This document shows, piece after piece, positions 1 to 10,785 of a DNA stretch of 10,785 nucleotides (positions are counted from its first letter, which is position 1; the number at the start of each line of letters is the position of its first letter). Origin of the DNA: a virus (lineage: Duplodnaviria > Heunggongvirae > Uroviricota > Caudoviricetes); IMG/VR virus record IMGVR_UViG_3300029647_000054, positions 1-10,785 of that record. The stretch is one strand, 5' to 3'. The translations under genes and the position numbers were made by a program. Below the pieces are notes generated by a model, which was given only the letters and a program-made list of their open reading frames with translations, ran no database searches and was not told the DNA's origin.

Positions 1-42
1 CAGTTGTTCAGGCTGGCGTGCGAATTGTAAACCAGAATGCCA

Positions 43-71
43 GGAAAAAACAAAACCCGCCGAAGCGGGTT
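43..71 (-). terminator. Rho-independent terminator at the 3' end of the hok transcript
   Basis: Inverted repeat 54-60 / 65-71 (AACCCGC / GCGGGTT) with 4-nt loop; on the minus strand the hairpin is followed by TTGTTTTTT (53-43); lies about 70 nt 3' of the hok stop. Confidence 0.55.
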
Positions 72-139
72 AAGTGCGGGTGCGTTGAGGATGCCTGACT
101 CATCAGAGGTGGCGAGGGATTTCTCCCTCGCCAGGTCTC

Positions 140-295
140 TTACTCCTCAGGTTCGTAAGCTGTGAAGACAGTGACCTCCGTCTGGCCGGTTCGGATTCGT
201 ACCTCGCAGAGGTCTTTCCTCGTTACCAGTGCCGTCACAATGACGGTAATACAGATGACGATCAGGGCGACTAACATCGCCTTTTGCTGCTTCAT
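140..295 (-). CDS. hok: Hok/Gef family type I toxin (51 aa, HokD/HokC-like small membrane toxin)
   Basis: In-frame internal ATG at 295 of the 70-aa track ORF; product MKQQKAMLVALIVICITVIVTALVTRKDLCEVRIRTGQTEVTVFTAYEPEE closely matches my recollection of HokD/HokC; SD AGGAG about 7 nt upstream; single TM helix. Confidence 0.85.
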   Translation of the reverse strand: MKQQKAMLVALIVICITVIVTALVTRKDLCEVRIRTGQTEVTVFTAYEPEE

Positions 296-352
296 AGCCT
301 GCTTCTCCTTGCCTTTCGGCGTGTAAGAGGCTAACCTACATGTGACTAGCAT
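140..352 (-). CDS. mok: Mok-like in-frame upstream reading frame that couples hok translation (70 aa)
   Basis: ATG at 352 in the same frame as hok, as recalled for chromosomal mokC/hokC pairs; existence as a separate regulatory frame is inferred from the hok/sok paradigm. Confidence 0.5.
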   Translation of the reverse strand: MLVTCRLASYTPKGKEKQAMKQQKAMLVALIVICITVIVTALVTRKDLCEVRIRTGQTEVTVFTAYEPEE

Positions 353-410
353 GAAATTGGCCTCAGATTAATGTTAAGCGTCCTGCAAGACGCATAATGT
401 TAACTGGGGC
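340..410 (+). ncRNA. sok: Putative Sok-like antisense RNA overlapping the mok start region (approximate)
   Basis: Inferred from hok/sok architecture only; candidate promoter TTGCCT (309-314) - 17 nt - TAACCT (332-337) on the plus strand; no clean terminator seen, ends not determined. Confidence 0.25.
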
Positions 411-510
411 TTTTCTCTGTCTGCCTTACGGTGGCATGCCCGAGGCAGACAGCCTCAAGCACCCGCAGCAATTCTACTTAACTCTCGCTTTACCGCAAAC
501 CGTTTTTACC

Positions 511-532
511 CGATATGGGAATTCCCATATCG
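511..532. repeat. Perfect 22-bp palindrome CGATATGGGAATTCCCATATCG
   Basis: Read directly: 11-nt arms exactly reverse-complementary with no spacer; not followed by a U-run on either strand. Confidence 0.8.
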
Positions 533-540
533 TAATGAAT

Positions 541-645
541 TCAGTTCCCTAGTCGATCCATCAAAAACACAACCAGGCAGTAAACACCCACAACAGCAAT
601 AACAGCCAGCGCACCTTCCATTGCCAGTGAGATATCATCCGACAC
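541..645 (-). CDS. Small hydrophobic peptide (34 aa, GTG start), single predicted TM helix
   Basis: Not in ORF track (too short). SD AAGGAGG 4 nt upstream of GTG at 645; product VSDDISLAMEGALAVIAVVGVYCLVVFLMDRLGN; start codon uncertain (alternative ATG at 621). Confidence 0.3.
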   Translation of the reverse strand: MSDDISLAMEGALAVIAVVGVYCLVVFLMDRLGN

Positions 646-680
646 ATTCCCTCCTTTGGTGTTAATCCCGGCGAACGCTT

Positions 681-764
681 TTACCCACACCGACAAATAA
701 CATATACTAAAAAAGCGATAGCCATAGCAACGCCTGTAATTGCAAATGCTTCAGGCCAGATCAT
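681..764 (-). CDS. Small hydrophobic peptide (27 aa), single predicted TM helix
   Basis: Not in ORF track. ATG at 764 overlaps the TGA of the upstream DUF551 gene (ATGA); strong SD GGAGG with 7-nt spacing; product MIWPEAFAITAVAMAIAFLVYVICRCG. Confidence 0.4.
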   Translation of the reverse strand: MIWPEAFAITGVAMAIAFLVYVICRCG

Positions 765-1438
765 TGGCGCACCTCCTGCGGCGGTTCTGGTAGCGGCATC
801 CAGTGGGTTACTTTCGATGCCGGTTCTTCCCCATCGTCAGTAACTGCCCACCATTTGTTTCTCGACCAATCGTAATACCCTTCGAAGGTATCGCACTCAG
901 TCCAGCCGTAAGACTTACCCCAACACCAAACATACTGTTTATCGTCCGGAATTCGCTCACTACAGCTTATCCAACCATCCGGAGTTACCGGAGAGCTGGT
1001 TGACGCTTCCGGGATTTTCCGAAAATTATTGGTTGACGAATCTTTATTTTCCCGAAAGTTTCCGGACTGAAGCATGGCTTCGCGGCAATCGTTCCAGCCT
1101 GTAGCGTATGCAGCCGCTTTGCTGCTGCCTTCAACTGGCGCATCCTGCCAATACATTTCTTCCGGCACTACCGGCGCTGGAGGGGCGGCGTAAATGCCCT
1201 CTATCACTAAATGTTTGCGCTCAAAATCATCTGGCTCTCGATGATATACGTAACTCCAATCACCAAGGTTATCATTGCGCCTGCAACGGAAACCTATCGG
1301 CTCTGCTTCCAGCGATGCCAGAGCAATTCGTGCCAGTTCTTCCGCTTCTTCTGCTGGCAGTACAACGTTGCTACCCGGTCCGTATGTTTCGCGCCACTGC
1401 TTGATTGTCAGCAGTCGCTCTTTGGTAATAGTGGTCAT
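761..1438 (-). CDS. DUF551 domain-containing phage protein (225 aa)
   Basis: C-terminal Trp-rich segment (DGWISCSERIPDDKQYVWCWGKSYGWTE...VTHWMPLPEPP) matches the DUF551 pattern I recall from E. coli prophage proteins; ATG start verified. Confidence 0.7.
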   Translation of the reverse strand: MTTITKERLLTIKQWRETYGPGSNVVLPAEEAEELARIALASLEAEPIGFRCRRNDNLGDWSYVYHREPDDFERKHLVIEGIYAAPPAPVVPEEMYWQDAPVEGSSKAAAYATGWNDCREAMLQSGNFRENKDSSTNNFRKIPEASTSSPVTPDGWISCSERIPDDKQYVWCWGKSYGWTECDTFEGYYDWSRNKWWAVTDDGEEPASKVTHWMPLPEPPQEVRQ

Positions 1439-1440
1439 AG

Positions 1441-1629
1441 CTATTTCACCTTAATCTCAACATTTCGCAGCTTTAGCTCTACTGGCAGGTCTGACTTTCC
1501 GGTTAATGCTAATGCGAGATTTTCTGGAGTAATGAGAGCAGTTATTGTTCTACCCATCGCAAGGCGGATAATCAGCCTTATCTCTTCGTCACAAGCGCCA
1601 GGGCGAATAATTGATATTTGTCCGTTCAC
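1441..1629 (-). CDS. Hypothetical small protein (62 aa, GTG start)
   Basis: GTG at 1629 one nt after the upstream TGA, preceded by SD AAAGGAGAG at 5-nt spacing; same geometry as the ATG at 2484. The track's ATG at 1671 would overlap the upstream gene by 41 nt and lacks an SD. Confidence 0.5.
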   Translation of the reverse strand: MNGQISIIRPGACDEEIRLIIRLAMGRTITALITPENLALALTGKSDLPVELKLRNVEIKVK

Positions 1630-1630
1630 C

Positions 1631-1663
1631 TCACTCTCCTTTAATGCGAATGCCAGCGGCGCG
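1631..1663. repeat. Module-junction repeat, copy 1 (about 33 bp, 31/33 identical to copy at 2486-2518)
   Basis: TCACTCTCCTTTAATGCGAATGCCAGCGGCGCG; encodes the shared C-terminal AGIRIKGE tail plus stop and the SD for the next gene. Confidence 0.8.
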
Positions 1664-2164
1664 GGAATCATTCCATCGCTTTACTTCTTCACGAATTACG
1701 TCAATGCATTCTTTCGAATCCATTAGGTAATCTTCATCAAAAAGACGTTCCTGTTCGTTTTCTATCGCAACAATGATTGCTTCAACTAACTTTTGTGCCT
1801 GAGAACCACTTTCTAACTCTGCAATGCGCTGTTTTACGGTATCAAGTTCAATCGATAATTTTTCCAACTGCTCTTTATGCTTCTTGTATTCCTGATATGC
1901 GTGCCAGGACTGACCTTTGCGCACACTATCAGTAATATCAGTAATCTGTTCTGGTGTTAGCGTAGTCAGTGGCTGTGCTGGGAAAATCAGCACTTTCCCG
2001 GAATCCCAATCAAAACCAGCGTGAATTGACTGAACCTCAACTGATGGTGTTGAACCGATGCGACCAGGCGAATGAACAACGATCGTTACATCCATATCTC
2101 GACGATGGCTGTGGTTGCTGGACAAAATACGATTCACCAACTCAGAAAATTTGGAAAATTTCAT
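1631..2164 (-). CDS. Hypothetical protein (177 aa) with coiled-coil C-terminus ending AGIRIKGE
   Basis: ATG at 2164 overlaps the upstream TGA (ATGA), SD AGAGGG at 7 nt; the track ORF's extra 43 N-terminal residues would overlap the upstream gene; last 8 residues identical to the Ea22-like protein. Confidence 0.6.
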
Positions 2165-2484
2165 GTTGATCCCTCTTTCTCTCCCCGGATAATTCTGTTG
2201 CACACATCCACACACTCGTCGCAGATGAAAACGGCGTCCCCAGCAATTAACTTTTTGACGGCGTACTGGGATTTGTTGCAGAAGCTGCAACAAAGTGTTC
2301 GCCTGACTGATAAGGATGGAGCGCCAGATGTCAGCCGCTCCATATCGTTCTTGCGACGCAATATCACACGGCTGAACTCAACCAGTTTCTCCGGGGATAT
2401 CTCCTCCTCCGTAGCGAGCGTCTCTAGTCGTTCGAGTATGTTGAAGGCTTTTTCCTGGGTAATAGCAGAATGCGATGTGGTCAT
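2161..2484 (-). CDS. Small protein with ClpX N-terminal zinc-binding-domain-like C4 zinc finger (107 aa)
   Basis: [38 protein letters not shown] aligns with ClpX N-terminus ([37 protein letters not shown], from memory) with identical CxxC-x18-CxxC spacing; ATG at 2484 with SD AAAGGAGAG. Confidence 0.75.
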
Positions 2485-2485
2485 C

Positions 2486-2518
2486 TCACTCTCCTTTGAT
2501 GCGAATGCCAGCGACGCG
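2486..2518. repeat. Module-junction repeat, copy 2
   Basis: TCACTCTCCTTTGATGCGAATGCCAGCGACGCG; same coding/SD content as copy 1. Confidence 0.8.
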
Positions 2519-3181
2519 TGGCACATTAACTTCCACGATGCGCACATTTGGTTTGTACATCTCAATCGCTGTCAGCCAGTCAGCGCCAGTCATGCGCTTT
2601 TCTGCATCGCCATTAGTCCACTTAACCGGTACACCAATAGCCTTCATCGCGATTTCTATTTCCCCGGCAATGGTGCTTTTTCCGCAACCAGTAAAACCAG
2701 ATACAACGACCAGAACTTCACCTTTGGCTGGTTTTATTTCCCGCGCTTCCAGTTCTGCTATGCGCTTACTTCCATCCGAGATAACACCTTCGTAATACTC
2801 ACGCTGCTCGTTGAGTTTTGATTTTGTCTCCTCAAGCTCAACGCGCAGCTTCCCTACCGTTAACGCAATATCCTCGTTCTCCTGGTCGCGGCGTTTGATG
2901 TATTGCTGGTTTCTTTCCCGTTCATCCAGCAGTGCCAAGACAGCAGTCGGATTGGCCTCTGCTATGAACTCAGCGTTTGCATAAGCCTGAGCATCTGTTT
3001 CAACCAGGCAGTTAACATGACATTCTGCAATCACGCCACCGGGTTCTCCTTTCCATTTTTGACAAACAAAAACTCCTGTTAAATTGCCGTGCTGGTTAAC
3101 AGATGTATGCCCTACGATGTAGCTTCCTTTAGTTGCTTTCTCTGCCTTTTCACGCAGTGCCTGATAGTTAATCTCGCTCAC
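2486..3181 (-). CDS. Ead/Ea22-like protein with C-terminal Walker A (P-loop) motif (231 aa, GTG start)
   Basis: N-terminal region with [20 protein letters not shown] motif typical of Ea22-like proteins as I recall them; central coiled coil; [10 protein letters not shown]-loop; GTG overlaps upstream TGA (GTGA) with SD GGAGGA at 6 nt. Confidence 0.7.
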
Positions 3182-3402
3182 TCTTCATCCTCCAAGTCGG
3201 CAACGGCGTCCATCACATCAGAACCGCGAATAACCTCAAAAGCACGGCAGGCCATTTGAAATACCAGTTGCTCTTGCGGGTGAGGAGACTCCCAATATTT
3301 GAAGCCTGGGCGATGCGTGTACCCCATCATTGAATAAAAATCACCAGCAAGCTTAATCGCGGCATCGACAAGCTCTCTGTTAGTCATTCTTTTTCCGCTC
3401 AC
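3178..3402 (-). CDS. Hypothetical small protein (74 aa, GTG start)
   Basis: GTG at 3402 overlaps the upstream TGA; SD AAGGAGG at 6 nt; no family recognised. Confidence 0.5.
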   Translation of the reverse strand: MSGKRMTNRELVDAAIKLAGDFYSMMGYTHRPGFKYWESPHPQEQLVFQMACRAFEVIRGSDVMDAVADLEDEE

Positions 3403-3749
3403 TGGTTGCCTCCTTTGCGAAGCTGGGCGGCTAACTCATCACATATGTGCGTCAAAGAACAAAGTTTGATTGATGGATGTTCGCGCATCATCTCTACCCC
3501 CTGCGCCCGCACTTCAGACAGGAAAGCATCGGTGGCTGGCATATTTCCTGTTGCCTTCATTGCCTCCAAAATAACCAGAACGCCATCTCGCCCAATCTCC
3601 TCGCAGATAACCTCGGTGCTGTCGCCAACAACATCGCAAAATGCCTGAACTGCTTTACGAGCCAGCGCATCTTCCGCCCTGTGAAACGCCTCGCGGTTGA
3701 AATTTTCATATCCCGTCATTGGACCGGCAATATAAACTCTGACCCTCAC
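3399..3749 (-). CDS. DUF4406-like (nucleoside 2-deoxyribosyltransferase-like fold) phage protein (116 aa, GTG start)
   Basis: N-terminal VYIAGPMTG motif characteristic of DUF4406 as I recall it; rest of protein did not match my memory of the family; GTG overlaps upstream TGA with SD AGGAGG at 7 nt. Confidence 0.55.
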   Translation of the reverse strand: MRVRVYIAGPMTGYENFNREAFHRAEDALARKAVQAFCDVVGDSTEVICEEIGRDGVLVILEAMKATGNMPATDAFLSEVRAQGVEMMREHPSIKLCSLTHICDELAAQLRKGGNQ

Positions 3750-4138
3750 TCCATCACCTCCTGAAAGTTTCCCCGATAGAACGCCAGCACACGCTGCATA
3801 ACTTCGCTCCTCCTGCTCTCACGACAAATTATGTTCTGCCGTCTGTTGTAACGACGTATTTCTCCGTCAGGTAACTTTCGAATCAGTGTCGGGTCAGCAG
3901 CCTTCTCCGGTGTCTTACGCCATACGCGATACGCCTGCTCTGATGGAAATACCCCGCAACCAGAGAGCCAGACATCACCACTGGCCGCAAGCGCACCAGA
4001 TAAACGACGAATAGCGGTCTTACTGACACCCGTTTTATCTGCCAGTTGTCGAAAAGTTTCTCGTCCGCTCAGGCGCACGAATTCCACAATGCGCGCCTTC
4101 ACTTCTTCCCGCTCTTCTGGTGTAAATACTTTTGCCAT
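3746..4138 (-). CDS. Putative HTH DNA-binding protein (130 aa)
   Basis: ATG at 4138 with SD GGAGG at 5 nt (track start at 4153 is TTG); helix-turn-helix-like segment FRQLADKTGVSKTAIRRLSG. Confidence 0.6.
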   Translation of the reverse strand: MAKVFTPEEREEVKARIVEFVRLSGRETFRQLADKTGVSKTAIRRLSGALAASGDVWLSGCGVFPSEQAYRVWRKTPEKAADPTLIRKLPDGEIRRYNRRQNIICRESRRSEVMQRVLAFYRGNFQEVME

Positions 4139-4153
4139 AAGCGCCTCCGGCAA

Positions 4154-4879
4154 TCACTTTTCCGATACAACACGGCGGGAAGAATCAGTAATCTGTCGAA
4201 CAATATCCCGGTGCTTGTTCAGCTCCCGCAGCGCGGCGCAGACTCGCTCCCACTTCTGAACCTGACCTTTTGCCCGGCGCAGCTCGCGGTTAGCCACATG
4301 CAGCGATGGTAAAATCAGACCATCCGGATGTTTTCTGGTGAACGACGGCTGTGACTGCACTGTGACCGCCACACTTTCCGTTTTTATTTCTTCCTGTGTT
4401 TCTGCTTCCCGGACAGGTAACGCAACACCTGCTGGCTGAGGAAAGGCTTTACCGTCGGTTTCCGCTACGGATGCAGCTTCCGGCTCTGCCGGTAAATCAG
4501 CGCCCGGTATGCAGTAACGAAATTTACCGCCCTGATTCACGCGAATCAGACGCCCTTTGCTGATTGCCATGGCCAGCGATGAATTCGCCCGGCGGGAGGT
4601 AATCCCGAACATCAGTGCCAGCTCATCCGCCGTTTGTGGGCCATGTTGTTCAATCGCCTCAGTCAGCATTTGCGCTGTCACTTTCGGTACCGGTGACACC
4701 GGTTCACTTTCACCAGCCTGAATCAGCCGCCACATCGAACCCTTGTTATCCGCTTCACCGCGGCGCTTCAGTTTCCACAGTTCGTTGACCGCATCTTCAC
4801 GGCTGATTCCAAGGCGGGACGCCACTACCTGTGAAGAGGCTCTTTTCAGTGCTTTCAGTGCGTCAAATACGGTTTCCAT
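4154..4879 (-). CDS. Hypothetical phage protein with two winged-helix-like segments (241 aa)
   Basis: ATG at 4879 with SD GGAGG at 8-nt spacing (track start at 4897 is TTG and contains that SD); two internal segments resembling winged-helix DNA-binding folds. Confidence 0.65.
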
Positions 4880-4912
4880 TAAAATTTCCTCCGACAAAAT
4901 CGTTTCTCAGAT

Positions 4913-5575
4913 TCAAATAAAACCAGCTGCCTTCCGGCGTTCGTATTCCTGTTTCAGCCGTTCAATTGGCGTTGGCCCTTGCGGGTGTTTCGCCCCTTCC
5001 AGTTGTCGTCGCACTGGCGGAACACTCATCCCGTTACCAACATGCTTTGCCCATTTCGTCAGTTGCCGTTCCGCAAGTCGTTTTAACTCACCCTGCGTCA
5101 TCTGGCGCTCAATCCCTCTGGTACGCATTTCGAGGCAGATGTGGTACAGCACAGGCTGTGGCCACGGGTATTTATCACTCCCGTCGTATCGCCAGGATTC
5201 ATTGCGCCAGCGCCGGTACTCTTCCATCACGGCATCCACCGTAAGACCAAATGGATTTGCCCCACTCTCCGAAATCAGCGCAACAAACTCAGCCAGGTCC
5301 GGGGGCCACGTTTCACCCGCCCGGCAGCGGTCCATGCACTGACGGCAGACCAGCCGGATTTGCTGTTCAGTCATCGTGCCAATCTGGGCAATCCAGAGCT
5401 TCGAAGGTGCGGCCCCGTTCTTCTGAGTCCAGCGGTTCGAATACACCTCCCCCATAAGCTCCCACAGCTTCCAGGCCATTTCCGTTGCTGATAAATCCGT
5501 TGTCTCGTTCCCACTGTTCGCGTGCTGCCCGGATTTCCTGAACTGCCCGTGATGCCGTGCCACCTGATGCTGCAT
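4913..5575 (-). CDS. Replication protein P-like (lambda P family helicase loader), up to 220 aa
   Basis: Similarity to lambda P as recalled (W-x-A...TMxEQ, FxP-P--F-A, YPW motifs); ATG at 5575 has SD AAGGGGG at 6 nt; start uncertain (alternatives 5479, 5455); overlaps O-like frame. Confidence 0.7.
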   Translation of the reverse strand: MQHQVARHHGQFRKSGQHANSGNETTDLSATEMAWKLWELMGEVYSNRWTQKNGAAPSKLWIAQIGTMTEQQIRLVCRQCMDRCRAGETWPPDLAEFVALISESGANPFGLTVDAVMEEYRRWRNESWRYDGSDKYPWPQPVLYHICLEMRTRGIERQMTQGELKRLAERQLTKWAKHVGNGMSVPPVRRQLEGAKHPQGPTPIERLKQEYERRKAAGFI

Positions 5576-6404
5576 GGCTTACCCCCTTGCTGACTGGTTT
5601 TACCTGTGTCCTGACGTGCTGCACGTGGCGGGCAAATTTCTGCTCCCACTGAACCTGTGTGAAAACCTTCCCCTCCGCCATCCAGTAATCCCGGAATGCG
5701 GCAAGCTCTGCAGGTGTAAATTCCGGCTCAGGCAGAGCCATACCCCACACTGCTGCCCGTTGTCGAAAATCCGACGACGGCTGCCAGACAGTAGTCATCG
5801 AAAATTTCCCGATCGGTTCGCTCAGGCCGTCCAGGTATTCAGGTTCGGCTGTCTGCAACGGCGCACCATGCGACTCACCGGTTGGAGCACTCTCGCGCAT
5901 GCGCGCGTTATGTGTGGGGTTTAATTCTGTATCTGTATCTTTATCTGTCGTGACTTGTCGTGACAGATGCGTGACACGTCGTGACTCATCGTGACAATCA
6001 GCATCATATTTCCGCAGCTTTTCGCGCTCCCGCTGCGCTCTCTTGCGCTCTGCCGGGGATTTTGCCGTTTGCGAAACGTTACCATTGTCCTCTTTCAGCA
6101 CCTGACGTTTTTCCCATCCGGAAATAAGGTCACCATCCAGAACCCGCCCCTGCATTGCATGCAAAATTGAATCAATTACGTCTTCCGTCACATCAAGCGC
6201 ACTTGCTAAATCTTCCGTCGTGACATCAATGTGACCACGTAGTGACACGCCGTGACATGTCGTGACATTTCGTGACGCACTCACCAGAAGGTGGATATAC
6301 ACCGCCATCACTGTTGCGATTGGCTGTCCTGAGACCCTGGCAATGGTTCGCCATTTGGGATCATTTGGCATGTCATGCCACAATCTGAGCCAGGCATTAG
6401 CCAT
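5367..6404 (-). CDS. Replication initiator / replisome organizer (lambda O-like) with internal iterons (345 aa)
   Basis: N-terminus MANAWLRLWHDMPNDPKWR resembles phage replisome-organizer N-domains; iteron clusters inside the coding region; ATG at 6404 with SD GAGG at 5 nt (track start 6410 is GTG). Confidence 0.75.
   Translation of the reverse strand: MANAWLRLWHDMPNDPKWRTIARVSGQPIATVMAVYIHLLVSASRNVTTCHGVSLRGHIDVTTEDLASALDVTEDVIDSILHAMQGRVLDGDLISGWEKRQVLKEDNGNVSQTAKSPAERKRAQREREKLRKYDADCHDESRRVTHLSRQVTTDKDTDTELNPTHNARMRESAPTGESHGAPLQTAEPEYLDGLSEPIGKFSMTTVWQPSSDFRQRAAVWGMALPEPEFTPAELAAFRDYWMAEGKVFTQVQWEQKFARHVQHVRTQVKPVSKGVSHAASGGTASRAVQEIRAAREQWERDNGFISNGNGLEAVGAYGGGVFEPLDSEERGRTFEALDCPDWHDD
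5948..5995. repeat. Iteron cluster 1: five direct repeats of (T/G)CGTGAC at 10-11 bp spacing, preceded by a 6-bp periodic (TATCTG-like) tract
   Basis: CGTGAC at 5949, 5959, 5970, 5980, 5990; adjacent tract 5924-5947; read directly. Confidence 0.7.
6220..6276. repeat. Iteron cluster 2: six direct repeats of GTGAC at 10-11 bp spacing
   Basis: GTGAC at 6220, 6231, 6242, 6252, 6262, 6272; read directly; about 270 bp from cluster 1, both inside the O-like gene. Confidence 0.7.
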
Positions 6405-6472
6405 ACTCACCTCATCTGATACCGAACTTTACCCTCGAACATCCGGAAGAAATCCGGCATGAATATTGTTGG

Positions 6473-6898
6473 TCAATGCACGACAACAGCATTACCAGGC
6501 TGACCACCACTGTTAGTCAGGGTGCCCCAGGCGATCGCCGCTGCGACAAAATCATCCACATCTTTCACCAGCCGATCCCTCCGTTCGACGATCTCACGGT
6601 AATATTCAGAGCTGTGACTGCGCATACGGGCCACCAGCAAAGGCGGCATCGCCTTTTCGATCGCCGGTAACAGAGCCTGCATTTTTTCAACAGCATCAGG
6701 GGTGTCTTTATCCAGCCAACGGAAAATTTTCTGGGTATTACGGGCCAGGGCTTCCGGATGGCTGTCGTCATACAGTTCCGGGAACGTCATTCCCAGCTCG
6801 AAATACGCTTTGGTAATTTTCGCAGCCGGTACTTTTTCGCCGTCCGGATGCGCCCAGACATTCATCGCCATGCGGATGTGTTCATGCTTGATTTTCAT
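6473..6898 (-). CDS. YdaT-like protein in the cII position (141 aa)
   Basis: Starts MKIKHEHI and ends VVVH as I recall for Rac YdaT; ATG overlaps the Cro-like gene's TGA (ATGA); family assignment from memory only. Confidence 0.55.
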   Translation of the reverse strand: MKIKHEHIRMAMNVWAHPDGEKVPAAKITKAYFELGMTFPELYDDSHPEALARNTQKIFRWLDKDTPDAVEKMQALLPAIEKAMPPLLVARMRSHSSEYYREIVERRDRLVKDVDDFVAAAIAWGTLTNSGGQPGNAVVVH

Positions 6899-7158
6899 GA
6901 ATCAACTCCCAGCGCGGGTTGTGTGTTAGCCTGATAGTCAACAGGTATGCCATCGGTTGGGTTGGGGTAAGTACTGCTATCAATCTCGTGCGGGGTCACT
7001 ACCCACCCTGTTGCTTCACACCAGCGTAAAACTTTCCCCCCCGTAAGTTTCGCCCGTCCAGTAATAACATGGCTTACCATCCCTTGGGTTACCCCAACAA
7101 TTTCAGCAAAATCTTTCTGGGTTATACGGGAATGATGCAAATATTCTCCAAGATTCAT
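6895..7158 (-). CDS. Cro-like HTH transcriptional regulator (YdaS/Cro family, 87 aa)
   Basis: HTH segment QKDFAEIVGVTQGMVSHVITG; divergent from the CI-like repressor across an operator-containing intergenic region; SD GAGGTG 4 nt before ATG. Confidence 0.75.
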   Translation of the reverse strand: MNLGEYLHHSRITQKDFAEIVGVTQGMVSHVITGRAKLTGGKVLRWCEATGWVVTPHEIDSSTYPNPTDGIPVDYQANTQPALGVDS

Positions 7159-7188
7159 TGTTCACCTCATGTTATGTGACCATGAATA

Positions 7189-7230
7189 TTAATAGCATTG
7201 TTATTTTTAAAAGTAAATAGCACTGCTATT
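7189..7230. promoter_or_regulatory. OR-like region: two 15-bp palindromic operators plus a PR-like promoter for the Cro-like gene
   Basis: Operators AATAGCATTGTTATT (7191-7205) and AATAGCACTGCTATT (7216-7230); on the minus strand TTTACT (-35, 7217-7212), 17-nt spacer, TATTAA (-10, 7194-7189). Confidence 0.65.
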
Positions 7231-7265
7231 TCAAAGAGATTAATAATCTTATTAGAATTGAAGGT

Positions 7266-7766
7266 ATGAAAAGAAAACCCCTGTCAGAGATCGACCTGCA
7301 AGCCGCCCAGAGACTGAAAGAAATCTGGACGACGAAAAAAACTCAACTTGGGTTAACCCAAGAGCGTGCGGCAGAAATTCTGGGTTTTTCGACACAAGGG
7401 GCAGTAAGCCATTATCTAAATGGTCAGACACCTTTAAATCTAGAGGCTGTTATCAAGTTCGCTGGGTTGCTACAAGTTCCGCCTGAGTCAATTAGACCAG
7501 ATATGGCAGACTTGTTACGAATTGTAAGGATGTACCCCCAAGAACTGCAGCAGGATAATGTTGTCGCTTTACCCGCAGAGATGGAACAATCGGAAAACGA
7601 ACTTCCGTTTAATATAGAACCTATAGAGCGAGATTTGATCCAGACGTTCAGGGCTTTCCCAAAAGAAGACAAAGAGAAAATGCTTAAGGAAATGAAGGAG
7701 AAAAAAGAATCAATTGAAGAAACCGTTGCGCGGTGGCTAGAGGCGCAAAAAGGTCTTCGCGCCTAA
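7266..7766 (+). CDS. paaR: CI-like HTH repressor, regulator of the three-component TA module (PaaR-like, 166 aa); no S24 peptidase domain
   Basis: N-terminal HTH (LGLTQERAAEILGFSTQGAVSHYLNG); divergent from Cro-like gene; directly upstream of antitoxin-toxin pair; C-terminus too short and lacks a LexA-like autocleavage domain. Confidence 0.75.
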   Translation: MKRKPLSEIDLQAAQRLKEIWTTKKTQLGLTQERAAEILGFSTQGAVSHYLNGQTPLNLEAVIKFAGLLQVPPESIRPDMADLLRIVRMYPQELQQDNVVALPAEMEQSENELPFNIEPIERDLIQTFRAFPKEDKEKMLKEMKEKKESIEETVARWLEAQKGLRA

Positions 7767-7783
7767 TCTGAGGAGGTTAGAAC

Positions 7784-7975
7784 ATGAGTACAGTCCTTTC
7801 CCCGATAATTTCAGAATTTGAAACAATCGAACAAGAAAACAGCTATAACGAATGGTTACGCACCAAAGTGGCAGCAAGCCTCGCAGACCCCCGTCCTGCA
7901 ATTCCGCATGACGAAGTAATGGCTGAAATGGAAAACCTTATTGCGCAAATAGCTTCGACGAACAGGAGTGAGTAA
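7784..7975 (+). CDS. paaA: PaaA-like antitoxin (63 aa)
   Basis: 63-aa acidic protein immediately upstream of and overlapping (TAATG) the ParE toxin gene; matches my recollection of the PaaA2 antitoxin from E. coli O157 paaR2-paaA2-parE2; SD GAGGAGG at 8 nt. Confidence 0.7.
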   Translation: MSTVLSPIISEFETIEQENSYNEWLRTKVAASLADPRPAIPHDEVMAEMENLIAQIASTNRSE

Positions 7976-8265
7976 TGCTGCCCATTTTATGGCTACCTTC
8001 TGCGCGTGATGATTTGCGTCAGATCGTAGCCTATATTGCCAAGGAAAACCCTCCCGCTGCACGTAGACTAAAAATACGCATTGAAACATCAGTTTTGTCA
8101 CTTACTGAACACCCTTACCTGTATCCACCAAGCGAAAGAGCCCTAGGCCTTCGTGAGATAGTGACCCATCCTAACTACATAATACTTTACCGAGTAACAG
8201 CATCTAACATCGAGATCGTAAATGTAGTTCACTCACGAAGGCAGTATCCAAACAAAAGCTGTTAA
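7975..8265 (+). CDS. parE: ParE/RelE-superfamily toxin (ParE-like, 96 aa)
   Basis: Typical ParE sequence features (LPILWLPSARDDLRQIVAYI...EHPYLYPPSE...REIV); start overlaps antitoxin stop by 1 nt. Confidence 0.8.
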   Translation: MLPILWLPSARDDLRQIVAYIAKENPPAARRLKIRIETSVLSLTEHPYLYPPSERALGLREIVTHPNYIILYRVTASNIEIVNVVHSRRQYPNKSC

Positions 8266-8280
8266 TCATTCCTACCAACA

Positions 8281-8304
8281 ACCACCTTCGGGTGGTTTTT
8301 TTTT
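8281..8304 (+). terminator. Rho-independent terminator after parE
   Basis: ACCACC-TTCG-GGTGGT hairpin followed by a run of nine T. Confidence 0.8.
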
Positions 8305-8320
8305 CTTACCTCCAAAAAAC

Positions 8321-8362
8321 AATAGCATTACTATTTACAGAATAAAATAGCAGTGCTATTGT
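8321..8362 (+). promoter_or_regulatory. OL-like region: two 15-bp palindromic operators plus a PL-like promoter driving the dicB-type operon
   Basis: Operators AATAGCATTACTATT (8321-8335) and AATAGCAGTGCTATT (8346-8360); TTTACA (-35, 8334-8339), 17-nt spacer, TATTGT (-10, 8357-8362); mirrors the OR architecture. Confidence 0.65.
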
Positions 8363-8538
8363 TTATTCATCACCCACCCTCCCCACAGAATGCAGGGCAA
8401 TACTTCGAGTTACCCGGCAGTGGTCAGGGGTTAAGTAGCCAGCCCGAGGCGTATGAACATGACGGCGGGAACACTTTGTATAACAGCGCAGCAGGTTTTT
8501 GTTCCGCTACCCCGGCGTTAAGGGGAAATGAGGTCAGC

Positions 8539-8691
8539 ATGGATACTATCGAGCTTGGCAACAGCGAATCTCTGGTATGCGGCGTGTTTCCCAACCAGGA
8601 CGGCACGTTTACCGCGATGACGTATACCAGAAGCAAAACGTTTAAAACGGAAGCTGGCGCGCGTCGCTGGTTAGCAAGAAGCTCTGACTGA
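8539..8691 (+). CDS. Small protein (50 aa), first gene of the PL-type operon; possibly YdfA/YdaF (DUF1391)-like
   Basis: ATG with SD GAGG at 5 nt; in frame with the track ORF whose GTG start lies inside the operator; family assignment is positional only. Confidence 0.4.
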   Translation: MDTIELGNSESLVCGVFPNQDGTFTAMTYTRSKTFKTEAGARRWLARSSD

Positions 8692-8789
8692 TGAAGGTTA
8701 GTAATTAAAGAGTTCTCCACAGGCGAAGTGGAATACGTTCGCAGGACACGGGTAAGCATTCGGCATGCTCTTTAACAATCTGGGTATTC

Positions 8790-9236
8790 CTAACCACAAA
8801 GGAATCGCATCAATTTGGATTTTGCAGACAGTTTCTCTTGTTGTTCTACGGAGATTCCTATTTTGATCTGGGTTTTTAAGATTGCGATATCTTTAAGCGA
8901 CGACCAAATATTATCATCTGTTTTTTCCAGGAGCTTTAACTGCATTTTCAATTCCGAATCGGAATATTTTTCTGCATCATCATAAAGCTGCAGATATTCT
9001 GCGGATTTTCTCATTGCGTTACCTGACTTTTGTCCGAATCCGTAAATCGTTTGAACGGTTGCTATCACAACAATGAGAACTCCAGAAACTTCAGGAATAA
9101 ATCCACCAATGACAGATGAACCGAGGATAATACTCACCACTGAGAAAAGTTTATCGAGACGACCAGTCGCTACAGAGAATAGTTGTTCAAGAAAATAACC
9201 ATATAAAACCCTGTCAAGAATATCATCCCGGTCCAT
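8790..9236 (-). CDS. AT-rich two-TM membrane protein with coiled-coil-like C-terminus (148 aa); candidate superinfection-exclusion (sieB-position) protein
   Basis: Opposite strand to the surrounding operon; SD AGGTG at 8 nt; hydrophobic segments LFSVVSIILGSSVIGGFI and VLIVVIATVQTIYGF; clearly lower GC than neighbours; function inferred from position. Confidence 0.55.
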   Translation of the reverse strand: MDRDDILDRVLYGYFLEQLFSVATGRLDKLFSVVSIILGSSVIGGFIPEVSGVLIVVIATVQTIYGFGQKSGNAMRKSAEYLQLYDDAEKYSDSELKMQLKLLEKTDDNIWSSLKDIAILKTQIKIGISVEQQEKLSAKSKLMRFLCG

Positions 9237-9295
9237 ATATCATCACCTGCTTGTTTGATTGTTGCTGTTCCCCCTCTCCTCTGAAGGAGCTGGAG

Positions 9296-9484
9296 ATGGT
9301 TTTGGTCGAATGTTTTTCTCAGGTATATGTTTCCTGGTATTCGGAATGTCCGCCCTGTCCGCAGGCTTACCAGTACCTGAACAATTCTTTTGAACCACCA
9401 TATAAAACACCTTCCTGTTGTTGGGGATATCCAGATTATACAGATTTCCTGTTATTGGGGAATGACGGAAACCACCTCGCCTGA
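9296..9484 (+). CDS. Small Cys-rich protein (62 aa), hypothetical
   Basis: ATG with SD GAAGGAG at 6 nt; six Cys including CPPCP and SCCW; preferred over the overlapping low-complexity minus-strand ORF. Confidence 0.4.
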   Translation: MVLVECFSQVYVSWYSECPPCPQAYQYLNNSFEPPYKTPSCCWGYPDYTDFLLLGNDGNHLA

Positions 9485-9699
9485 CGTGGTTAAAAGCAGG
9501 CACACAACACGAAAGCGCACGGCGAGATTCCTTTGCATATAAGGCTTGTCGTTAAATTTCTTCGACCGTGCACTTCCGGTTGTGGCAGTCCGCGAAATGG
9601 CGCGGCGGTAAGTATGGCTGGGGCTTCCTCCATTGCTCCAGAAAATGCACCGGGTCGTCAGGTTGACCATACGCTTAAGTGACAGCCCCGCCACAATAC

Positions 9700-9757
9700 C
9701 CATGTGTAGTATTTGGTGGCATCAGTTCTACTCCGTGACTGCTCTGCCACCCTTTTT
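9700..9757 (+). ncRNA. dicF: DicF-like small RNA (ftsZ-targeting sRNA family) with intrinsic terminator
   Basis: TTTGGTGGCATCAGTTCTACTCCGTGACTGCTCTGCCACCCTTTTT closely matches my recollection of K-12 DicF, with compensatory stem changes; sits directly upstream of dicB as in Qin. Confidence 0.7.
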
Positions 9758-9761
9758 AAAG

Positions 9762-9922
9762 TGAATTTTGTGATGCGGTGAATGCGGCTATGCGCACGCG
9801 GAACAGTTAAAACCGTAAAGTGGTCTTTTACGGGGCGTAACGGGCATCCTTCTGTATTCCGGCGTTAATTGTTAACTGGTTAACGTCACCTGGAGGCACC
9901 AGGCACCGCATCACAAAATTCA
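9762..9922 (+). repeat. Long-range 19-nt perfect inverted repeat (TGAATTTTGTGATGCGGTG at 9762-9780 and its reverse complement at 9904-9922) bracketing 123 nt between dicF and dicB
   Basis: Read directly; would form a 19-bp RNA duplex in the operon transcript. Confidence 0.7.
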
Positions 9923-9939
9923 TTGTTGAGGACGCGATA

Positions 9940-10128
9940 ATGGAAACGTTATTACCAAACGTTAATACGTCTGAAGGTTGTTTTGATATTGGTGTTCTGC
10001 TCAGTAACCGGGAGTTTACGGAAGATGCCATTAAGATGAGAAAATATGAACCTTATCTTCTCAATGATAATTCCATACTTTCCAGAATTGCCCTTCTTGA
10101 ACTTGGTATTATCGGAGAACAGCAGTGA
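9940..10128 (+). CDS. dicB: Cell division inhibitor DicB (62 aa)
   Basis: N-terminal 35 residues (METLLPNVNTSEGCFDIGV...FTEDAI) closely match K-12 DicB as recalled; C-terminus diverges; SD GAGGA at 7 nt. Confidence 0.85.
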   Translation: METLLPNVNTSEGCFDIGVLLSNREFTEDAIKMRKYEPYLLNDNSILSRIALLELGIIGEQQ

Positions 10129-10313
10129 CTTCAGCATTTGCACTGGTGATGACCGTTTTTCTTATAACGGGTGAGCCACAAAATGTGATTACCGGAATTT
10201 ATGACAGTAAGTCATCCTGCATTCAGGTAAGGGACGAACAAAAAATCCCCGGTGAATGCCTCCCGTTAAAAAAAGTATCGCTGAACCTGAATAACGAAAT
10301 ACCGGCTGGATAA
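10125..10313 (+). CDS. ydfD: YdfD-like small membrane/lysis protein (62 aa, GTG start)
   Basis: GTG overlaps the dicB stop (GTGA), SD GGAGAA at 5 nt; N-terminal hydrophobic helix; assignment by position in the dicB operon and size. Confidence 0.5.
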   Translation: MTSAFALVMTVFLITGEPQNVITGIYDSKSSCIQVRDEQKIPGECLPLKKVSLNLNNEIPAG

Positions 10314-10408
10314 CCCGCCAGCCATATTAACACCATACCAACGGATTAAAAATGCCAGCAATGGCAGGGATTCGTTCACCCTGAAATCTGTAATGAGGTT
10401 AAAACAAA

Positions 10409-10785
10409 ATGAGTAAAGTCTTTATTTGCGCCGCTATTCCTGACGAACTGGCAACAAGGGAAGAAGGCGCTGTGGCTGTAGCCACAGCCATTGAAGCTGG
10501 CGACGAACGCCGTGCTCGAGCAAAATTTCACTGGCAATTCCTGGAACATTATCCGGCTGCTCAGGACTGCGCTTATAAATTTATTGTCTGCGAGGATAAA
10601 CCCGGCATACCCCGCCCTGCCCTCGATTCATGGGATGCTGAATATATGCAGGAAAACCGCTGGGATGAGGAGTCTGCTTCCTTTGCCCCGGTTGAGACTG
10701 AATCAGATCCGATGAACGTCACTTTTGACAAGCTGGCCCCTGAAGTACAGAACGCTGTCATGGTTAAGTTCGACACATGTGAAAA
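10409..10785 (+). CDS. Partial CDS (runs off the window end, at least 125 aa), YdfE-position hypothetical protein
   Basis: ATG at 10409 with SD GAGG; open frame to the window end; not in the track because no stop is reached. Confidence 0.55.
   Translation, partial: MSKVFICAAIPDELATREEGAVAVATAIEAGDERRARAKFHWQFLEHYPAAQDCAYKFIVCEDKPGIPRPALDSWDAEYMQENRWDEESASFAPVETESDPMNVTFDKLAPEVQNAVMVKFDTCE

Follow-up and report, generated by a model that had tools for sequence, protein, structure and literature searches.

A two-gene cassette with a SLATT-like membrane protein in the sieB slot of lambdoid prophages: a candidate abortive-infection or exclusion unit

Three described systems come closest to the locus analyzed here. 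In lambda, RexA, a protein of 279 aa, and RexB, with its four transmembrane (TM) helices, are encoded together as a two-gene unit of the immunity region that combines a soluble partner with a membrane channel-type protein. This unit has been proposed to depolarize the membrane upon superinfection (PMC6379469), the same outcome that we propose below for a different pair of gene products. SieB, known from P22, lambda and the Rac prophage, is a membrane protein of 162-192 aa with a cytoplasmic tail; it abortively excludes superinfecting heteroimmune phages and has an in-frame internal product, Esc, involved in self-immunity. Its gene is traversed in antisense by the early-left transcript, which is the basis of the sas-type self-immunity of P22 (PMC12197685): the sas antisense RNA controls sieB translation and lets P22 escape its own SieB (PMC12197685; PMC7067206). 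The SLATT proteins, finally, are small proteins with 2-3 TM helices, predicted to act as pore-forming effectors, that shift between defense systems (PMC9226505; PMC7159879) and are toxic once unleashed (PMC9226505). One type I CBASS uses a SLATT_4 protein as its effector (PMC11381338), and DRT10 defense needs a SLATT protein, the activation of which is still unexplained; even for bona fide SLATT proteins, pore formation is a prediction (bioRxiv 10.64898/2026.04.29.721553).

The window, that is, the whole stretch of 10,785 nt that was analyzed (positions 1 to 10,785 of IMG/VR record IMGVR_UViG_3300029647_000054), covers the immunity region of a lambdoid prophage, with O/P replication genes, ydaT, a cro-like gene, a cI-like gene and relB/parE, followed by a terminator, a promoter-like site, the DUF1391 gene, an opposite-strand ORF for a protein with two predicted TM helices (hereafter 2TM), DicF and dicB (Table 1). 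The 2TM gene is antisense to the DUF1391 gene, DicF and dicB, and an early-left transcript that reaches dicF must traverse, in antisense, the entire cassette described below. Toxin-antitoxin genes are found elsewhere in the window as well: a hok/sok type I locus occupies its left end (140-464; Rfam sok at 117.6 bits, 290-464), and relB/parE, a type II pair (7784-8265), lies directly downstream of the cI-like repressor, the position that lambda uses for rexAB. The right end of the window (~10377-10785) probably extends into an IS4 element whose insertion point follows the DUF1482 gene, by analogy with a nearly identical genome (L001) in which an IS4 transposase is located at 11079-12425 of the locus.

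Table 1. Features of the 2TM locus and its surroundings (window coordinates)
Feature	Position	Strand	Remarks
Strong terminator	8280-8297		predicted
Sigma-70-like site	8334-8362	plus	predicted; after terminator 8280-8297
DUF1391 (ydfA/ydaF-type) gene	8539..8691	plus	first gene of dicB-type early-left operon; convergent with cassette
148-aa SLATT-like 2TM inner-membrane protein gene	8790..9236	minus	ATG start; membrane location predicted
Shine-Dalgarno AGGTGAT of 2TM gene	9242..9248	minus	5 nt before ATG
52-aa basic proline-rich micro-ORF (MVVQKNCSGTGKPADRADIPNTRKHIPEKNIRPKPSPAPSEERGNSNNQTSR)	9243..9401	minus	C-terminal 28 codons conserved
Micro-ORF Shine-Dalgarno AGGAAGGTG	9408..9416	minus	read from sequence
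Promoter-proximal direct repeat copy TCCCCAACAACAGGAA	9412..9427	minus	repeat analysis
-10 region: perfect TATAAT 9440-9435, overlapping TAATCT (9438-9433)	9433..9440	minus	P22 alignment
Distal direct repeat copy TCCCCAATAACAGGAA	9446..9461	minus	over -35; 34 nt upstream of proximal copy
Nearly invariant block GTGCCTGCTTTTAACCACGTCAGGCGAGGTGGTT	9470..9503	unassigned	inverted repeats GCCTG/CAGGC and AACCAC/GTGGTT overlap
DicF sRNA	9701..9752	plus	Rfam 62 bits
dicB	9940-10128	plus	early-left operon gene

In the Rac prophage of K-12, racR, ydaG and ydaF (DUF1391) are followed by sieB on the opposite strand, so that sieB, like the 2TM gene, comes just past the DUF1391 gene, and in lambda the SieB ORF abuts N, again on the opposite strand. 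Because the gene orders of Rac and lambda match that of the window, the analogy with the sieB slot is exact, and the earlier note on this DNA was correct in placing the ORF, antisense, in a Rac-type sieB slot. An opposite-strand slot in the early-left operon, beside the immunity region and behind the sieB promoter, is common to the 2TM gene and to the Rac, lambda and P22 layouts compared.

The 2TM ORF also has the other properties that had been ascribed to it at first reading, namely, a good ribosome-binding site (Table 1), an AT-rich composition and two hydrophobic helices. Its GC content is 38.3% (GC3 = 0.34), compared with 48.9% for the whole window and with 52.3% and 50.9% for the left (DUF1391 gene) and right (9441-9939) flanks, respectively, and the hydropathy profile of the protein contains two hydrophobic segments, 30-46 (TM1) and 50-67 (TM2), separated by the 3-residue loop IPE. 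Residues 1-29 form a charged, amphipathic N-terminal helix. The tail (68-148; 81 residues, with 14 K/R and 12 D/E), predicted to be cytoplasmic, folds into four helices in the AF2 model, so that, of the coiled-coil-like charged domain originally suggested, the charge and the helicity are supported, and the coiled coil is not. Across the 2TM family, R26, G39, S40, D107, A118 and G148 are near-invariant, and Q62, within TM2, is conserved in the family consensus.

An exhaustive profile search among 1.84 billion representatives recovered 145 clusters (50% identity) of the 2TM family, nearly all of them stand-alone proteins of 150-180 aa, and the pN/pS of the gene is 0.07-0.12 between E. coli alleles and 0.32 relative to the Salmonella homologue. 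Given the 145 clusters and the low pN/pS among the E. coli alleles, this is a genuine gene under selection, not a chance ORF. Relatives are encoded in Enterobacter, Salmonella, Yersinia, Klebsiella, Edwardsiella, a Polynucleobacter/Limnobacter-type contig and a Providencia phage, and, wherever the repressor region is visible, they always lie alone, on the opposite strand, beside it.

The earlier note had pictured a single gene. This picture is incomplete, in that a micro-ORF immediately upstream and a shared promoter module were overlooked. The micro-ORF, which is absent from the PGAP annotation, ends 6 nt upstream of the 2TM start codon, with its stop codon TGA (9245-9243) overlapping the Shine-Dalgarno sequence of the 2TM gene. 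Gene callers almost never pick up its equivalents, and inspection of 10 loci revealed, in 10/10, a small hydrophilic, proline-rich ORF of 26-53 aa that stops 4-16 nt short of the 2TM gene (E. coli, Salmonella, Enterobacter, Yersinia, Klebsiella, Edwardsiella, the Polynucleobacter/Limnobacter-type contig, a P2-like element, the Providencia phage PSTNGR2lys and phage EKP1). Identity to the window protein is only 20-58% for the 2TM proteins at these loci; the small ORFs have in common the loose motif [VIM]P-x(1-9)-[RK]P-x(0-3)-P-x-P, and the peptides match no family in Pfam or PADLOC.

Comparison of two E. coli alleles indicates which frame is coding. The N-terminal half of the micro-ORF has been swapped for unrelated sequence, with the start position and the frame kept, and the C-terminal 28 codons differ by 4 synonymous and 0 non-synonymous changes (chance ~0.002, estimated from the site counts). 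All four changes are silent when read in the minus frame, and in the plus-strand ORF that overlaps it they occupy second codon positions, which marks the minus frame as coding; by the same substitution pattern, the plus-strand ORF (9251-9484) is rejected as a real gene. With a conserved micro-ORF directly upstream of the 2TM gene, the unit reads, at the level of sequence, as a two-gene cassette.

As to what the peptide does, one natural allele is informative. In E. coli 08-00022 (L022, 1977-2040), a deletion between CAGGTGNTG repeats removed the proline-rich part, whereas the Shine-Dalgarno sequence of the 2TM gene was kept and the 2TM gene itself is intact, with 2 non-synonymous and 8 synonymous changes relative to the L021 allele. 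This allele shows that the peptide is not indispensable as an antitoxin, and the essential-antitoxin interpretation of the micro-ORF is unlikely. A leader that stalls ribosomes at polyproline in an EF-P-dependent manner is, as a general explanation, unlikely as well, given that the peptides of the window, L017 and L018 contain no consecutive prolines. A regulatory, sensing or gating role of the micro-peptide appears more likely.

The cassette is found in 89 of the 5,426 complete E. coli genomes. Over 8300-9800, the window matches an E. coli chromosome at 99.4% identity; there, the prophage adjoins potC and the 2TM ORF is annotated as 'hypothetical protein'. The backbones that carry the cassette are distinct, with relBE/cI-like genes in some cases and racR/ydfB/ydfC in others; AT-rich and present on different prophage backbones, the cassette is probably a mobile unit. 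It also decays in some lineages: O145 strains (matches H115-H122) retain no more than the promoter, the micro-ORF and a 5' half of the 2TM gene. Phage EKP1 (L003 4847-5441) carries the same two-ORF cassette, at 31% identity, outside the sieB slot; it lies there on the opposite strand, with the late antiterminator gene on one side and the holin/lysozyme/Rz lysis genes on the other, a placement implying that the cassette can occupy other moron sites.

The ~110 nt upstream of the micro-ORF are much better conserved than the proteins encoded downstream. This module aligns with the P22 sequence (BK000583) annotated as 'sieB: promoter' and then 'sieB RNA start site', and also with the DNA that immediately precedes lambda sieB; in K-12, comparison of the Rac locus with window 9230-9760, a segment containing the promoter module, detected no similarity. 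The TAATCT hexamer aligns with TAAACT, the -10 element of P22 sieB, and the first base of the proximal direct repeat (~9427) is the predicted transcription start, because it is homologous to the annotated P22 sieB RNA start. At the K-12 Rac locus, the RefSeq annotation includes KilS (L014 4406-4503), a small RNA encoded on the early-left strand directly upstream of sieB; our literature search found no paper on KilS.

Two further elements characterize the module. A direct repeat brackets the promoter, one copy lying over the -35 and the other extending from +1, always with a spacing of 33-34 nt (elsewhere at L015 1544-1560/1578-1594, L004 1438-1447/1472-1481, L002 4808-4824/4842-4858 and L016 2851-2859/2885-2893). 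The two copies evolve in concert, such that CCCCAAYAAC, CCCCTACAG, CACCACAACG or CCCCAACAG each occurs twice, and the presence of the repeat together with different immunity repressors excludes it as the immunity operator. A ~34-nt block with the pattern GTGCCTG.CTTTTAACCAC.TCAGGC..GGTGG, which lies just upstream of the sieB-type promoter, hardly varies among E. coli prophages, P22 and lambda (also at L015 1503-1536, L004 ~1395-1430, L005 and L008-L011); its Salmonella version contains a compensatory ACTAC/GGTAG change. A stable RNA structure of this block is unsupported on either strand (z-scores of -0.2 to -1.8), and Rfam has no family besides DicF at the cassette and promoter region.

The promoter module is far from confined to the cassette, being present in 2,734 of the 5,426 complete E. 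coli genomes, that is, in about half. In other E. coli prophages, unrelated opposite-strand cargo is encoded directly behind it, either a coiled-coil protein of 151-171 aa with CxxC...CxxC motifs, found, among others, in O157:H7, or a 66-aa protein (L010 1970-2485, L011 1970-2485, L009 2035-2490 and L012 2302-2502, all minus); none of these belongs to a Pfam or PADLOC family. In distant genera, the cassette is present without this promoter module. Together, these arrangements suggest a fixed promoter 'socket' with exchangeable cargo, where the two-ORF cargo appears to move as one piece. A literature search, itself incomplete, turned up no paper describing the cassette or the slot as a site of cargo exchange.

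With slot and strand identical, the promoter homologous and the gross plan of the protein similar, namely, N-terminal hydrophobic helices and a (here predicted) cytoplasmic tail, the 2TM protein might be taken for a diverged SieB, a member of the same family with homology eroded past detection that acts exactly like SieB of P22 and lambda. The comparisons of the proteins themselves speak against this. The Pfam SieB model (PF14163), the search that the earlier note had called for, retrieves lambda SieB at 1e-29 as the positive control, but matches neither the window protein nor six relatives at E<=10, nor any member of the 2TM family (0/76) at E<=0.1; BLASTP of the window protein against lambda SieB yields E = 6.2, and hhalign of the 2TM family profile against an alignment of lambda, P22 and Rac SieB gives a probability of 0.4%. 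With all three comparisons negative in the face of a strong lambda control, SieB identity is rejected, and the caution, already voiced at first reading, that the protein may not be SieB proved to be justified.

The organization of the genes differs, too. The 2TM protein, at 148 aa, is shorter than SieB, and P22 sieB has no small upstream ORF, its RNA start at 1578 being followed by the ATG at 1609. Neither an Esc-like product nor a sas promoter is predicted in the cassette: M75 of the 2TM protein, the candidate internal start, is not conserved, and no plus-strand (antisense) promoter or terminator is predicted inside the cassette. The early-left transcript is necessarily antisense to the cassette, as it is to sieB, which is no proof of a sas-like RNA. 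The reading of the 2TM protein as a diverged SieB is largely refuted and, at the very low probability that we assign to it, essentially excluded.

A different kinship emerges from comparison with defense-related profiles. Against NCBIfam SLATT_4 (NF033632), the window protein scores 15.2 bits (E = 0.014), the cut-off being 55, and sub-threshold NCBIfam matches recur in the 2TM family, to SLATT_4 in 30/76 members (best 1.2e-5), to SLATT_1 in 11/76 (best 4.5e-5) and to SLATT_fungal in 2/76. When all 76 sequences were reversed, with composition and the lengths of the hydrophobic segments preserved, SLATT_4 matched 0/76 and SLATT_1 matched 1/76; a compositional artefact behind the SLATT matches is rejected, as the signal vanishes in the reversed sequences. 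The models considered were NCBIfam NF033632/NF033634 and Pfam PF18186 and its relatives; the Pfam SLATT models leave the window protein unmatched, with SLATT_4 found in just 1/76 members (E = 0.041). In PADLOC, the sole recurring matches, all weak, are to 'Effector 2TM' and 'RTasSLATT'. The defense-profile comparison that the earlier note had recommended thus has a split outcome, with no curated threshold passed, on the one hand, and weak, recurring matches to SLATT and 2TM effectors, on the other hand.

The structural prediction leans in the same direction. An initial model, built from a 6-sequence alignment that was too poor (pLDDT 60), was discarded; the AF2 model from a 45-sequence alignment has a pLDDT of 82.4 and a pTM of 0.71. 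Its best viral Foldseek matches, in BFVD, are mostly proteins named SLATT (probability 0.97-1.0, TMq 0.46-0.73), with E-values of just 0.01-0.1 and the caveat that helical membrane proteins of small size readily find structural matches; a search of PDB structures produced nothing specific or comparable to the model. Hydropathy, charge distribution and the AF2 model all fit the SLATT plan (PMC9226505), in which a small protein carries 2-3 TM helices between cytoplasmic ones. In UniRef, 'SLATT domain-containing protein' is the name given to this exact protein sequence, to the 91% allele and to the Salmonella relative, whereas NCBI labels them hypothetical, so that the possibility, raised before, of an uncharacterized exclusion protein holds in part: the protein is not wholly uncharacterized. 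On the strength of these profile and fold similarities, the 2TM protein is probably a distant relative within the SLATT superfamily; because every curated cut-off failed, it belongs to no curated SLATT family.

The likeness to the SLATT proteins of described systems, SLATT_4 of the type I CBASS and SLATT_5 of DRT10/UG17, extends to a length of ~150-190 aa, a 2TM hairpin with flanking cytoplasmic helices, and residence on mobile elements in conflict contexts; the sequence similarity, to SLATT_4 and SLATT_1, is weak, recurrent and validated by controls, and the best fold matches are SLATT. The differences are, however, substantial. The 2TM protein scores far under all curated cut-offs, and its gene lies in the lambdoid sieB slot behind a sieB-type promoter. 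The described SLATT systems include an enzyme partner, whereas no CD-NTase/SMODS, SLOG or RT partner was found in the window or in any neighborhood examined, the sole partner being the 26-53-aa proline-rich peptide.

In the light of these observations, we propose, with a probability of about 0.5, that the gene pair is a mobile cassette expressed in lysogens that acts in abortive infection or exclusion in place of sieB, conceivably through a pore-type mechanism. The sieB-type promoter (-10 at 9440-9433, start ~9427, minus strand) would direct synthesis of a bicistronic mRNA, from which the 52-aa basic proline-rich peptide and the 148-aa 2TM protein would be translated, the latter inserting in the inner membrane as a hairpin whose two ends face the cytoplasm. 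The membrane protein would be held in a closed state in the lysogen. A superinfecting phage, possibly sensed jointly by the cytoplasmic helices of this protein and the small peptide, would trigger formation or opening of a pore, the membrane would depolarize, and the infection would abort, an outcome functionally similar to that of SieB or RexAB but brought about by a different protein. Upon derepression of the own prophage, early-left transcription would run antisense across the cassette and should silence it, in a manner for which P22 sas provides the precedent.

The original suggestion of an exclusion or abortive-infection candidate is strengthened by the SLATT-like signal, by the homology of the promoter to that of P22 sieB and by the invariable immunity-region context, from which we infer the function. 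The failed curated SLATT thresholds, the weak Foldseek E-values, the lack of a nucleotide-signal or RT partner, the peptide-less L022 allele, the failure to predict a terminator or antisense promoter inside the cassette and its decay in some lineages count against this interpretation.

Some of these same observations could be accommodated by a true superinfection-exclusion protein that blocks DNA entry or the injection channel without killing the cell, with the peptide as an accessory, comparable to HK97 gp15, P22 SieA and T4 Imm. A small, predicted inner-membrane protein encoded behind a lysogenic-type promoter in the immunity region, with no sensor enzyme nearby, would suit such a blocker, and a natural allele without the peptide is tolerated, as expected of a non-toxic protein. 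However, the recurrent signal in both sequence and fold points to SLATT pore-forming effectors, not to known injection blockers, and no similarity to Sie families was detected in Pfam, PHROGs or PADLOC, so that we regard entry blocking as rather unlikely.

Alternatively, the cassette could be a membrane toxin or addiction-type module, or a host-physiology moron, of the cryptic prophage, with no role in phage defense; the peptide or the antisense early-left transcript would then hold the toxin in check, with Hok, KilR, DicB and YdfD for comparison among the neighbors. The region is indeed rich in toxins (hok/sok, relB/parE, ydaT, dicB), the cassette is convergent with the early-left transcription unit and fully overlapped by it, and the toxicity of SLATT-type proteins once unleashed (PMC9226505) would be in line with such a function. 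Nevertheless, the promoter is homologous to that of an exclusion gene, the slot otherwise holds sieB or other single cargo genes, which is the pattern of morons for competitive phage exclusion, and the allele without the peptide is viable with the 2TM gene intact. A toxin or moron without a defense role accordingly seems to us quite unlikely.

The abortive-infection or exclusion cassette that we favor resembles RexAB in being a two-gene unit of the immunity region that pairs a membrane channel-type protein with what would be, if expressed as we expect, a soluble partner. No homology between the two was detected, and the partner here is a peptide of 26-53 aa that at least one natural allele can do without. 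A more far-reaching version of the same proposal, which we put forward tentatively and consider possible but not probable, is that the pair constitutes a minimal, self-contained SLATT-type Abi system that dispenses with a nucleotide second messenger, the micro-protein serving as the sensor or gate, and that the promoter, with its invariant block and direct repeats, is a universal lambdoid 'socket' for exclusion cargos, including SieB, the cassette, the coiled-coil/zinc-ribbon protein and others.

The protein class itself is already known, as its automatic label in UniRef attests, and a membrane-located exclusion candidate is not categorically new. What is new, compared with the described SLATT systems, is the lack of an enzyme partner, the conserved micro-ORF, the location in the sieB slot and the shared promoter module. 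How SLATT proteins are switched on is an acknowledged open question, and a SLATT-like protein accompanied only by a 26-53-aa peptide, behind a promoter of the type mapped in P22, would offer a very small and tractable model for it. The micro-ORF, absent from the annotation, illustrates that automatic annotation under-describes the locus. Moreover, the same module precedes sieB in P22 and lambda and unrelated cargos elsewhere, and is present in about half of the complete E. coli genomes, which makes the slot worth mining for exclusion genes.
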